Program-made: the position numbers
Source of the DNA: Candidatus Marinacidobacterales bacterium
GTDB taxonomy: Bacteria > Acidobacteriota > Vicinamibacteria > Marinacidobacterales > DATDRI01
Assembly: GCA_965219415.1 (NCBI GenBank)
Contig: CBDCNP010000002.1
Location: forward strand, 2,720,001 to 2,784,000
Direction of reading: 5' to 3'
Length of the DNA: 64,000 nt
Shown: positions 15,001-18,000 of the stretch, one piece after another
Numbering within the stretch: position 1 is the first letter of the stretch
Layout of the letters: each line of letters begins with the position of its first letter

Positions 15001-18000
15001 GCGTACTTCGAATCGCTGCCGGACGACGTCCGAACCGCGGTTCGGGAAGTAGCAGTGGAGGTGGGCCGCTATCATCGCCGACTCGGTGAGACGGAAGACG
15101 AGCGACACCTGATCTTCCTCGAGGAGCGTTTGCAGATCGACACCATCGACCGCGGAGCTTTCGAAGCGGCAGGTGTTCCGCTCTATGAGCACTACAAGGA
15201 ACGGTTTGGCGACGGCCTCGTCGAGGCTGCCCGAAGTTATCACTCCACACCCTAGAATTTCGAGATCCTATGCCCCCGCGTTTTGCCGAGCGGCTTGACC
15301 GCGGTATCCGCCGCCTTCTCGAGACTACGTTGTTGGTCATTCTTTCGGCGATGGCGGTCATCTGCTTCGTCGAGGTCGTCCTTCGCTACGGCCTAGGTAT
15401 GAGTTTTGGCTGGTACGATGAGTTCACCGGCTACTTGCTGGTCTGGCTCACGTTCCTGGGCGCGGTGGCCGCCCAACAGGACGGCAGGCACATCGGTCTA
15501 GGCGGCGTCGCCGAGCGGCTCGGCCCTCGTGGCCAACGGCTCGCCGCTCTTTGCACGCACGGGCTCATGATCGCTCTGCATCTACTTCTTCTCTCCTACG
15601 GTGGCCTTCTTGCGGTCCGTTTCCTTTCCGACCGTGCCATTACGCTGCCAGTTCCGATGGGCATCATCTATATCGTCATTCCGTTCTCTGCGCTTCTGAT
15701 GCTGGGGGTCGAGGTCATCCAGCTGGGACGCACCCTCCAAACCGAACCCGATAGCTAATGGAACTCATACTCCTCGTTGTCATCGCGCTCTTGGCCCTGG
15801 TTGGCCTCCCCATCGGCTATGTTCTGATAGCCGCGAGCACCATTCTGATTGCACTTACCACGAGCACGCCCCTGGTCGTGGTGCCACACCGCCTCTTCAA
15901 CGGCACCGACAGCTTTCCCATGGTGGCGGTGCCGCTTTTCATCCTCGCCGGCTCTCTGATGAATCGAGCCGGCATCTCTCATCGTTTGGTGGAGCTTGCT
16001 AACAGCCTGGTTGGATTCATAAGAGGCGGGCTGGCCATGACTACTACGGTCTCCAGTATGTTCTTCTCCGAGGTATCGGGCTCCGCGGTGGCGGATGCCG
16101 CAGCCTTGGGGAGCGTACTCATTCCCGCCATGAAGGAAAGGGGCTATCCTGCGCGCTTCGCCGCCGCAGTCCTTTCGTCATCGGCCACCATCGCGATCAT
16201 CATTCCACCTTCGATTCCCATGATTCTTTACGGAGCGATCACCGGCTCGTCGATCGTGAAACTGTTCATAGCCGGCGTAGCACCGGGAGTTTTGTGTGGC
16301 GTGGCGATCATGTTGACCAGCTACTGGCTCACCCGCCGCGGGGGGTTTGCCGAATCGGAGCCGTTTGAGTTGAAGCGAGTCTCGAAAGGTCTCCGCCGGG
16401 CGTTTCTGGCGCTAGCCCTGCCTCTCGTGATCTTGGGAGGGATTTTCGCAGGCGTCTTCACGGCAACAGAGGCGGCTGCCGTAGCGGTCGTCCTAGCCTT
16501 AGGGTTGGGATTCTTTGTTTATCGTTCCCTCGAGAGAAAAGACCTGAGGCCCATTATCGTGGACGCCGCAGGACAGACCGCGGTGGTCATGATCTTGGTT
16601 GCGGGTTCGGCGGTTCTGGGCTGGTACCTGGCCAACCAGCAAGTGCCCGAGAGGTTGGCCTCATTCACGCTCGCCCACGTCGAAGGGAAAACCGGCGCCC
16701 TCCTTCTTATCGACGGCCTGTGGCTGGTGGCTGGAATGATCCTCCACAGCGCCGCCGCGATCGTTCTTCTCGTTCCTATCCTCTTGCCGCTAACCACGGA
16801 GTTGGGAATCGATCCCATTCACTTCGGCCTCATGGTCACGGTCAGCTTGGCCATCGGCCAGCAAACCCCACCGGTGGCTTCGGTGCTCATTACCACGTGC
16901 TCGATTGCAAAAGTGCCGATGGGTGAGGTCATGCGGGTGAACATCTACTTCATTCTCGCGATGCTCGCGGTGCTGCTGCTGGTGACGTTCTTCCCCCAGT
17001 TGAGCCTGTGGCTCCCTTCATTGATTTCCCCATAGAGAAAAAGGCAAGAGAAATGGTCTCTTCTTCCTTTATACCCTCTCCCTTCCGCCTTCGCTGAAGC
17101 TTCGGCGGACCCGCCGAAGTTCTCTGGAAAAAAGCGGACGAAGGCGGGTTGGGAGAGTTGGGCGTCAAAAGATGGCGTGCCGCACTCAACGTCGTCAGAC
17201 GCCGGGTGAGGGAACCTCGTTATCCCGTTTGATCCTTTCTCTCTAACATTGCAATCGTCGCTCCCCAGCCGCCACGGTCTGGGGAGGCTTCGCGGAAACT
17301 CGAGACCTTCGGATGCTTGGCGAGGACTCGGCGGACGACCTCTTTCTGGACGCCTTTCCCTCGGCCGTGGATTAGTCGGACTTCTTCGAATCCCTCCTCG
17401 ATCGCGGCTTCGAGATACGATTCCACTACGGAAGGGATGTCGCGAGGAGAAAAGGTATGGAGATCGAAGCTATCCTGCACCGGCACCGGTTCGGGAAAAA
17501 AATCATCGGTTTCGGACGCCATAGGCGATCATCCTTTTTTGGCGGAAGTGCGTGGGAATCGAACCCACCGTCCCGAGGATTAGCCCGGAACCATCGGATT
17601 TGAAGTCCGTGGAGGCCACCAGACCCCAGTCACTTCCCTCACTGCTAACACATTATATCAACGTAGGTTATCGAGTTCGGGTTTTTCGAGATCGGATTTT
17701 TCGGAATCGGCTGGACTTTCCCCGAACTTTGGAGCGCAATGAGCATGAATGGGTTGATTTTCTCTTGACGGTAGATGAACGTTTACGGCGGCATACCGGC
17801 GAGGCGTGTGGTGGTGCTATATGATCCAGCAGACCTCTCAACGCAACTTTGAAGAGCGCCCGATGGTGGCGAATTTTTCGGCCTGGACTGTATTACACAA
17901 TTTGGGTGGCGGGATTCTCGCATACGCGTATGGAATAACGATCCGCTAGACGAATAATCAAGGATTACACGATCCTTGATCCTTCACGCGGGTGTAAGCC

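Follow-up and report, generated by a model that had tools for sequence, protein, structure and literature searches.

The window, a stretch of 64,000 nucleotides (C3:2720001-2784000) from the genome of a Candidatus Marinacidobacterales bacterium, contains one component of the selenocysteine (Sec) system, the gene for tRNA-Sec. It is surrounded by genes for a TRAP transporter (DctPQM), an Smr-domain protein, tRNA-Ala(GGC), PEP carboxykinase and an IS integrase. The rest of the system, namely selA, selB, selD and every selenoprotein gene, maps to other parts of the genome, and none of selA, selB and selD adjoins the tRNA gene. The components are:

Window 17540-17637, minus strand: tRNA-Sec (selC), anticodon TCA (UCA), detected by ARAGORN and Rfam RF01852
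C3:1718188-1719549, plus strand: selA, TIGR00474 at 569.7 bits (cut-off 267.9)
C2:242216-244105, minus strand: selB, TIGR00475 at 375.8 bits (cut-off 242.25)
C3:3889655-3890587, plus strand: selD, TIGR00476 at 328.3 bits (cut-off 125), with one TGA inside

RF01852 matches positions 17544-17637 over its full length (model 1-91 of 91; 69.7 bits, gathering score 47, E 3.4e-12), and both the UCA anticodon and the long variable arm typical of tRNA-Sec are present according to ARAGORN and this full-length match. On the tRNA strand, positions 17540-17543 are GCCA; the discriminator G and the CCA end are therefore encoded. Given the position of the window on C3, the location C3:2737540-2737637 assigned to tRNA-Sec in the initial annotation is right, and the selA, selB and Sec-type selD genes that it listed are likewise present, all of them above the curated family cut-offs. 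By the established mechanism, the tRNA-Sec of the window would be charged with serine, which SelA would convert to Sec on the tRNA using selenophosphate supplied by SelD; SelB would then bring the Sec-tRNA to UGA codons followed by a hairpin within the coding sequence (the bacterial SECIS). Judged from its sequence, the genome very probably possesses an ordinary bacterial Sec-insertion system that is applied to an unusually long list of genes.

That list was compiled by an independent read-through scan of the whole genome covering TGAs more than six codons from ORF ends. Scores for 148,426 in-frame TGAs came from a 3-periodic fifth-order model combined with an opposite-strand check; a codon-usage coding score alone separated the frames too weakly. 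This left 549 candidates, 427 of which were run through Pfam as segments of ±70 amino acids about the UGA, with TGA read as U. A Sec-type UGA was found in 31 genes, of which 29 look intact, and the "at least 21" of the initial annotation is thus a safe lower bound. Each of the 31 has one in-frame TGA, except for one gene with two; the codon falls within a recognised domain or within conserved alignment, at a position that corresponds to the Sec site of catalogued selenoprotein families or to a cysteine of homologs. Twenty-six genes belong to catalogued families, by which we mean those of Table 1 in the review PMC13188914, and five belong to four uncatalogued kinds. Three family-wide searches of the genome revealed nothing that the scan had missed: TGA-bearing genes made up five of nine CMD matches, seven of 29 AhpC-TSA matches (one a truncated copy) and none of 13 Thioredoxin matches.

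As the initial annotation had stated, the products are mostly thioredoxin-fold or peroxidase-type proteins: five AhpC-TSA, two deiodinase-like, five AhpD/CMD, one AhpF-N-like, one Grx-like and one unassigned UxxC protein. The others include two formate dehydrogenases, SelD, ArsM, rhodaneses, and DsrE-, OsmC-, UshA- and PrdB-like proteins; RtcB, a MetE-like protein and two large FG-GAP/ASPIC-TlpA-TPR proteins join the unassigned UxxC protein in the remainder.

In the 26 catalogued-family genes a Pfam or NCBIfam domain spans the UGA, and the predicted Sec occupies the tabulated motif in all but DUF3179 and OsmC. The motifs are UxxK in SelD, UHxP in both FdhA proteins, TxxU in four Prx, UxxC in the Prx-like, DsrE, PrdB-like and AhpF-N-like proteins, CxxU in five AhpD/CMD and one deiodinase-related protein, UxxG in ArsM and a rhodanese, and CxU in a form 3 rhodanese and the UshA-like protein. 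The UXX-star gene combines UxxT with U-x-x-stop; its second Sec was recognised only through knowledge of the family, and its C-terminus, U-A-V-stop, is in line with the family name. Matches above the NCBIfam cut-off were obtained for selD, TIGR01926 (twice), ahpD_dom (twice), TIGR02187 (PDO_seleno_TRX) and NF041114 (UXX-star family 1), and the best NCBIfam match was a selenoprotein-specific model for UshA_like_PCGU, rhodanese_LYCAU, ArsM and PrdB.

Three members had previously been flagged as weak, which was a fair assessment. The second FdhA is well supported, with 389 bits to TIGR01591 on a partial read, the UHxP motif and a hairpin. Two of the 26 genes look damaged or truncated. The second DUF3179 copy (C1:574558) is 5'-truncated, with just 13 codons preceding the TGA; the two copies read UPID and UPLA, and their homologs in relatives occur in both TGA and non-TGA forms. 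One AhpD-like gene, CMD C3:3105492, is short: its tail has 52 codons and its frame 141 aa, versus 275 aa in G001, a single-contig genome of the same genus. The PrdB-like gene lies, as had been noticed, directly upstream of a luciferase-like monooxygenase gene. Both the UxxC motif of its product and the TGA recur in three of three relatives. Its scores are below the cut-offs of both TIGR04483 (115 bits, cut-off 300) and TIGR01918 (37.7, cut-off 65.45), and its neighbours (the monooxygenase, HEAT repeats and a broken molybdopterin gene) include no Prd or Grd partner genes; we therefore call it PrdB-like only. The frame of the molybdopterin gene, which had also been considered as a Sec gene, decays after about 190 residues, which marks it as broken.

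Additional evidence comes from the RNA downstream of the UGA. Using a proxy test of our own, distinct from bSECISearch, that requires a compact hairpin scoring at most -6 kcal/mol behind the TGA, we found a hairpin positioned like a bacterial SECIS, directly 3' of the Sec UGA, in 19 of the 26 catalogued-family genes. Ordinary TGA stops passed the same test in 4.7% of 1235 cases and out-of-frame TGAs in 6.7% of 1500. The seven genes in which no compact hairpin was detected encode SelD, the two deiodinase-like proteins, one Prx, one CMD, and the AhpF-N-like and Grx-like proteins.

The set extends well beyond this genome. selA occurs in 40 of the 41 genomes that represent the order and, across the phylum, in 118 of 150 Acidobacteriota genomes of good quality. 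Close relatives possess equally numerous TGA-bearing peroxiredoxin and AhpD genes; G001, for example, has five TGA-bearing CMD and ten AhpC-TSA matches together with selB and a selD containing TGA. In the gene-by-gene comparison, which covered ten of the 26 catalogued-family genes and the five genes of uncatalogued kinds, the TGA held its codon position in different genera, over protein identities of 39-91%. A large predicted selenoprotein set is common to the genus, the family and the order, and the present genome is not exceptional in its richness. With regard to the rarity implied by the initial annotation, the count does far exceed that of the other acidobacterium used for comparison, Occallatibacter riparius, with the caveat that such richness is a feature of the lineage and that relatives match it. 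In our own sample of five other Acidobacteriota families, zero to five TGA-bearing AhpC-TSA and zero or one TGA-bearing CMD matches were counted, as against five of each here at the same thresholds.

Several candidates were rejected, among them two, the M28 peptidase and UPF0114 genes, of Cys type or with a hairpin. The TGA of the M28 peptidase gene C3:5297772 lacks a hairpin and is found in this genome only (TGC in G001), and that of UPF0114 C3:1388497 is likewise confined to this genome. An AhpC-TSA fragment (C3:5422695-5422847) is a truncated copy of the Prx gene at C3:3431335, and in an RtcB fragment of L173 the TGA falls outside the domain. TGAs inside genes for xanthine dehydrogenase (C1:1684190), DUF4388, a response regulator, ADI-like, Amt, FtsX, DEAD helicase, SDR, CobU, MacB, SSF, PilT, Hydrolase_4 and HlyD proteins were left out of the count for want of a Cys or Sec position, a hairpin or a comparison with relatives.

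In-frame TGAs at non-Cys places of conserved domains are numerous (SDR, CobU, MacB, SSF, PilT, HlyD, response regulator and others), which indicates that nonsense mutations or base errors do occur in this genome, rich as it is in IS elements and pseudogenes. Such events might account for many of the counted TGAs as well, leaving a true selenoproteome far below 21. At least 12 TGAs of this type are found, the genome's own paralogs have W or R at many of these places, the M28 peptidase and UPF0114 cases are specific to this genome, and truncated Prx and DUF3179 copies are present. Yet the 31 retained TGAs fall on known Sec or Cys positions, hairpins are enriched fourfold or more behind them, the single-contig congener G001 exhibits the same pattern, and conservation of the TGA across genera refutes this explanation for the genes compared. 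We consider it most unlikely for the set as a whole. Foreign DNA is another conceivable source of an inflated count, either the 284-kb contig C2, on which selB, the unassigned UxxC gene and one FG-GAP gene reside, or other parts of an assembly that was scored as 8.45% contaminated. However, C2 holds just two of the 31 genes and has a G+C content of 0.595 compared with 0.592 for the other contigs, and G001 carries selA, selB, a Sec-type selD and TGA-bearing orthologs of RtcB, FG-GAP (three copies), MetE-like and PrdB-like genes on its one contig, which makes contamination or a chimera extremely improbable as an explanation.

A general reassignment or read-through of UGA, for example as Trp or Gly, would also produce in-frame TGAs, and several of them do align with W in paralogs. 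These W-aligned cases, however, are confined to IS elements or single genes. TGA is, moreover, the commonest ordinary stop, terminating 2016 of 4392 ORFs of at least 300 aa; the Sec machinery is complete; and the retained TGAs stand opposite Cys or catalogued Sec positions with hairpins behind them. Reassignment is consequently next to inconceivable, and insertion of Sec is the reading that we adopt for the retained genes.

The five genes of the four remaining kinds fall outside the 2026 catalogue of 119 families, though they may be listed in supplementary material to deep-Sep, BSepDB or the review. For all five, relatives have TGA at the same codon. In RtcB, the Pfam domain (E 3e-41) spans the UGA, which is followed by a hairpin and coincides with the active-site Cys of the DINCG motif; in an alignment with the solved structure 2epg_A it is opposite the Cys in GGVGFDINCGVRLL, presumably a metal ligand. 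TGA is present at this codon in six genomes of four genera, TGC in one genome of a fifth genus, and the best sister-family matches have no stop. The MetE-like protein (PRK06520/1ypx family) matches NF005085 with 228.7 bits over residues 1-356, a stretch that spans the UGA. Aligned to 1ypx_A, the UGA is opposite the Cys of HiCRGN, an H-x-C motif whose Cys we take to be a zinc ligand; nine of nine orthologs have TGA, and six more distant matches are free of a stop. The unassigned UxxC protein has TGA in 23 of 23 matches among relatives.

A different origin may apply to the Sec of the FG-GAP/ASPIC-TlpA-TPR proteins. One TGA is present in 21 of 21 matches from 13 genomes, at the same codon in all 14 loci read, and the two genes of this genome have hairpins of -7.3 and -8.0. 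The corresponding residue is Cys in five and three aligned matches among the genome's own paralogs. Elsewhere, none of the 120 best full-length homologs shows Cys at this place; the residue is S in 67, A in 34, G in 12, N in 6 and E in 1. In this 1200-residue exoprotein, most of whose homologs carry Ser, Ala or Gly here, the Sec may not be derived from a conserved redox Cys. Taken together, we see an even chance that this marine Vicinamibacteria lineage harbours at least four uncatalogued kinds of selenoprotein, including a natural Sec-RtcB, a Sec-MetE-like protein, a secreted UxxC protein and an FG-GAP protein whose Sec is not Cys-derived.

Acidobacteriota are among the most abundant bacteria of soils and sediments. 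In a lineage with about 30 predicted selenoprotein genes, in a phylum with selA in roughly four fifths of the sampled genomes, standard annotation would miscall many redox genes as truncated or split. With the four uncatalogued kinds, predicted Sec use would come to include an RNA repair ligase and the zinc-type site of a methyltransferase. They could also be used to test, on natural proteins, why Sec should be preferred over Cys as a metal ligand.

If correct, Sec-RtcB would have a natural Sec at an active-site Cys where it had formerly been placed only by engineering. According to the report on Pyrococcus horikoshii RtcB (PMC4150793, Nucleic Acids Res 2014), a UAG/EF-Tu system served to replace Cys98, which corresponds to the Cys aligned here, with Sec, and the resulting variant self-cleaved. 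Both proteins would share Sec at the active-site Cys of DINCG, but unlike the man-made variant, the TGA described here is natural, followed by a hairpin and kept in four genera. Titles and abstracts retrieved for RtcB and selenocysteine contained no report of a natural Sec-RtcB, and RtcB is absent from the text of review PMC13188914.

Selenium use by Acidobacteriota is represented in the literature, in the portions available, by four selenoproteins in 2006 and three in one genome in 2025, and the phylum occupies a single table row in the accessible texts of deep-Sep, BSepDB and the review together. The row in deep-Sep Table 2 does give three known selenoprotein genes for O. riparius DSM 25168, as the initial annotation had it. 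This organism is, like ours, a Sec user of the same phylum, but has about one tenth as many genes on that list, and it is one terrestrial genome, from a different class. The rich bacteria in the available parts of BSepDB and deep-Sep (Desulfobacterota, Nitrospinota, Dehalococcoidia) employ the same machinery as found here and overlap in the families Prx, Prx-like, AhpD/CMD, DsrE, rhodanese, FdhA, SelD, ArsM, UshA-like and UXX-star. With about 31 genes the present set is smaller than those of the record holders listed there (46-63 genes in the BSepDB top ten; at least 46 in Desulfosediminicola flagellatus). The TGA scan, as opposed to a family search, returned none of the classic anaerobe selenoproteins GrdA, a full Grd/Prd operon, HdrA and NiFeSe hydrogenase. 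The set also resembles the families that were originally reported from marine metagenomes (PMC13188914 Table 1, reference 59 group), which comprise AhpD-like, CMD-like, deiodinase-like and OsmC-like proteins, rhodanese forms and DUF3179. The same families and tabulated motifs (CxxU, UxxG, CxU) recur here, with the exception of UPID/UPLA in DUF3179 in place of UxxC/T, and here they co-occur in a single genome that is nearly complete, as well as throughout its order.

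The initial annotation had placed a tRNA for selenocysteine (Sec) in the window, and this is borne out. ARAGORN finds two tRNAs in total, of which the tRNA-SeC is also matched at 17544-17637 (-) by the whole of Rfam model RF01852 with 69.7 bits (gathering score 47, E 3.4e-12).

Features around tRNA-Sec (window positions)
14194-17035 (+), TRAP transporter DctP/Q/M
17220-17522 (-), Smr-domain gene
17540-17637 (-), tRNA-SeC, anticodon TCA (ARAGORN)
18286-18361 (+), tRNA-Ala(GGC) (ARAGORN)
18430-20163 (-), PEP carboxykinase
20345-21196 (-), IS integrase (rve), close to the tRNA pair

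Given these neighbours (transporter, Smr gene, PEP carboxykinase and integrase), tRNA-Sec is not clustered with the remaining sel genes of this genome (8.05 Mb in three contigs, C1 to C3; 59% G+C), in which the window spans C3:2720001-2784000. Also close to the tRNA pair, at 11307-14150 (-), is a gene whose 947-aa product joins an FAD-linked oxidase to 4Fe-4S and CCG domains (GlcD/GlpC-like).

The claimed selA, selB and Sec-type selD are likewise present, all three scoring above their family cut-offs.

Sec machinery genes (contig coordinates)
C3:1718188-1719549 (+), selA, 569.7 bits (cut-off 267.9)
C2:242216-244105 (-), selB, 375.8 bits (cut-off 242.25)
C3:3889655-3890587 (+), selD, 328.3 bits (cut-off 125), one internal TGA in the context CAGUASK, a UxxK motif

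UGA is not reassigned in this genome, because TGA is the commonest ordinary stop, ending 2016 of the 4392 ORFs with a length of 300 aa and above. The Sec mechanism is the standard one.

An independent genome-wide scan showed that the reported count of at least 21 Sec-UGA genes was real and conservative, as it yielded 26 genes of catalogued selenoprotein families and five others. All 148,426 in-frame TGAs with at least 6 open codons on either side were scored on both flanks with a 3-periodic fifth-order coding model, and the flanks were compared by BLASTP with ORFs of the same genome to pick out Cys paralogs. The outcome was 549 candidates, spread over 254 regions. The 180 best regions, with 434 candidates, were fetched; the other 115 candidates were of low priority and lay outside the Pfam scan. 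With TGA read as U, 427 candidates were scanned against Pfam (batches of 96, 96, 148 and 87), seven near-duplicate repeat copies having been dropped. Family-wide searches served as a check and found TGA in five of nine CMD, 7 of 29 AhpC-TSA and none of 13 thioredoxin matches. Across these three families a single match had escaped the scan, a truncated duplicate of the Sec-peroxiredoxin (Prx) gene at C3:3431335. This copy (C3:5422695-5422847, -), rejected as a gene, is near-identical as far as the residue after the TGA; from there on the two are unrelated, as though an insertion had cut the copy.

Genes in catalogued families (position of the T of the TGA)
C3:3889685 (+), SelD
C1:660470 (+), FdhA, TIGR01553 type
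C1:687203 (+), FdhA, TIGR01591 type
C3:3431335 (+), Prx (TxxU)
C3:378115 (+), Prx (TxxU)
C3:512817 (-), Prx (TxxU)
C3:693557 (+), Prx (TxxU)
C1:52897 (-), Prx-like (UxxC)
C3:3107761 (+), deiodinase-like
C3:4094818 (-), deiodinase-like
C1:1750720 (+), AhpD/CMD (CxxU)
C3:1576388 (+), AhpD/CMD (CxxU)
C3:3105492 (+), AhpD/CMD (CxxU), looks damaged
C3:5336913 (+), AhpD/CMD (CxxU)
C3:3645225 (-), AhpD/CMD (CxxU)
C1:1553416 (+), DUF3179
C1:574558 (-), DUF3179, looks damaged
C3:116884 (-), AhpF-N-terminal-like PDO
C1:45559 (-), OsmC-like
C3:4157409 (-), rhodanese (UxxG)
C1:1156064 (-), rhodanese form 3 (CxU)
C3:137522 (-), DsrE-like
C3:1588168 (-), PrdB-like
C3:1900856 (+), ArsM (UxxG)
C1:823224 (+), UshA-like (PCGU)
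C1:869789 (+), UXX-star Grx-like, second Sec codon at C1:869966-869968, then A-V-stop

Each of these genes has its UGA inside a Pfam or NCBIfam domain, and except for DUF3179 and OsmC the Sec motifs match those in Table 1 of a 2026 catalogue of selenoprotein families (PMC13188914). NCBIfam models exceeded their curated cut-offs for selD, twice for ahpD_dom, twice for TIGR01926 (88.8 and 145.1 vs 81.8), for TIGR02187 (250.3 vs 185) and for NF041114 (110.4 vs 72). For FdhA, ArsM, UshA-like, rhodanese_LYCAU, deiodinase_rel and PrdB a selenoprotein or family model was the best match, yet stayed below its full-length cut-off; most queries had been cut to 230 aa per side. The DUF3179 copy at C1:574558 has only 13 open codons upstream of its TGA, and the CMD frame at C3:3105492 comprises 141 aa vs 275 aa in the same-genus genome G001; both look damaged. 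As had been noted, the PrdB-like gene lies beside, in fact directly upstream of, a luciferase-like monooxygenase gene; by score and by neighbourhood it belongs to neither PrdB nor GrdB. At 1.4 kb from it is a molybdopterin oxidoreductase gene (Fe4S4 and N-terminal domain; L062:4522-5100, +, of the fetched region, C3:1590178-1590756), which is broken, as its frame decays after about 190 residues.

Hairpins are commoner downstream of these UGAs than after other TGAs. As a SECIS proxy we took a fully paired stem of 4 bp or more with a loop of 3-6 nt, G in its first two places, and a loop start 17-32 nt past the U of UGA. At -6 kcal/mol or better, 19 of the 26 genes pass; among 1235 ordinary TGA stops the share is 4.7%, and among 1500 out-of-frame TGAs it is 6.7%. 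With the limit at -8, 13 of 26 genes pass, vs 2.2% and 2.5% of these controls. Typical loops are GGC, GUC, GGA and GUU at +20 to +29.

In-frame TGAs also occur for other reasons. Over a dozen genes, intact in other respects, carry a single one at a non-Cys place of a conserved domain (SDR, CobU, MacB, SSF, PilT, HlyD, NtrC-type response regulator; loci L047, L051, L059, L026, L049, L128 and others). Several of these align with W or R of paralogs; the genes look like pseudogenes or base errors and were left out of the count. Comparison with relatives removed an M28 peptidase (TGA in this genome only, TGC in G001, without hairpin) and UPF0114 (TGA in this genome only). A repeated element of about 35 copies genome-wide (e.g. 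C3:4670507, C3:4790495 and C2:62779, outside the window) has an ORF whose in-frame TGA always stands in the context GIDACGPCGEPS-TGA-AQAMER(S/G)EGVLV; the element is probably an insertion sequence whose two ORFs share a frame, and it too was left out of the count.

Genes outside the catalogue (position of the T of the TGA)
C1:1063036 (-), RtcB, TGA in place of the Cys of GGVGFDINCGVRLL
C3:811862 (+), MetE-like, NF005085 at 228.7 bits spanning the TGA site
C3:4032825 (-), FG-GAP/ASPIC-TlpA-TPR protein, about 1230 aa, paralog of C2:206568
C2:206568 (-), shorter copy of the FG-GAP protein, about 940 aa
C2:249591 (+), unassigned 160-aa UxxC protein (PTUPVC), 5 kb from selB, hairpin -8.5

Alignment to the solved 2epg_A and P. 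horikoshii chains puts the RtcB TGA opposite the Cys of GGVGFDINCGVRLL. Six genomes from four genera of the family have TGA as this codon, a fifth genus has TGC, and the best sister-family matches are without a stop. The extended hairpin of this genome's RtcB, whose loop is GGUC at +24, reaches -12.3, the strict proxy giving only -3.5. In one sister-family genome RtcB appears as two adjoining matches with a TGA within the first (G010:C4:1272952-1273936); this may be a further Sec-RtcB beyond the window's family. The MetE-like TGA aligns with the Cys of the H-x-C motif in 1ypx_A and is kept in 9/9 orthologs (65-87% identity); no stop is present in six matches that are more distant. C3:4032825, covered by full-length Pfam analysis, has a signal-like N-terminus, six FG-GAP repeats, Sec, UnbV_ASPIC, a TlpA-like AhpC-TSA/Redoxin domain with CxxC, and TPR repeats. 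One TGA is found in 21/21 matches (13 genomes, 7 genera), at the same codon in all 14 loci read, and the two paralogs have hairpins of -7.3 and -8.0. The usual Sec/Cys pairing is only local, since the site is Cys in the genome's own paralogs but S (67), A (34), G (12), N (6) or E (1) in the 120 best full-length homologs from a large protein collection. The PTUPVC protein, without a Pfam or NCBIfam match, has the TGA in 23/23 matches from 15 genomes (one match in the unpublished G007).

These four kinds are absent from Table 1 of PMC13188914. The literature searched, at the level of listings plus passages of PMC4150793 and PMC10418091, gave no report of a Sec-RtcB, an FG-GAP/CRTAC1 selenoprotein or a Sec cobalamin-independent methionine synthase; supplements and BSepDB entries, outside this search, may hold prior annotation. 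An engineered C98U RtcB is described in PMC4150793.

Among named records, a Candidatus Marinacidobacterales MAG comes nearest (class Vicinamibacteria; SelA 89% identical). selA exceeds its cut-off in 40 of the order's 41 genomes (18/18 genera) and in 118 of 150 Acidobacteriota genomes (at least 90% complete, at most 5% contaminated; three unpublished ones included), and selB occurs in all five relatives tested. Among the relatives tested, Sec-type selD is confined to the two same-family genomes. In the two sister families of the order (G014, G018, G009) selD is free of TGA and its open frames are 774-862 aa long, which suggests a fusion protein with Cys for Sec.

TGA-bearing matches in this genome (G000) and relatives (AhpC-TSA at E<=1e-5; CMD at E<=1e-3, G000 at E<=0.01)
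G000: AhpC-TSA 7/29, CMD 5/9
G001 (same genus): AhpC-TSA 10/31, CMD 5/10
G014 (sister family): AhpC-TSA 10/21, CMD 3/7
G018 (sister family): AhpC-TSA 13/27, CMD 2/4
G003 (relative): AhpC-TSA 4/21, CMD 0/2
G009 (sister family): AhpC-TSA 2/9, CMD 1/3

In five genomes from other families of the phylum, TGA-bearing AhpC-TSA matches number 5, 4, 1, 0 and 3 at E<=1e-12 (vs 5/20 in G000), and CMD matches 1, 1, 0, 0 and 1. Published yardsticks are a total of 57,630 selenoproteins for 16,621 species (about 3.5 each) and 46-63 genes in the top ten (BSepDB, section 11), a count of three for Occallatibacter riparius (deep-Sep, Table 2), and four selenoproteins for all Acidobacteria in 2006. From the relatives' TGA counts, the spread of selA and these yardsticks, the selenoprotein set is a large one for the phylum and under-described there, yet a trait of the lineage rather than a peculiarity of this genome, and not a record. 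What makes the finding interesting is how large a set occurs in Acidobacteriota, together with the four uncatalogued kinds.
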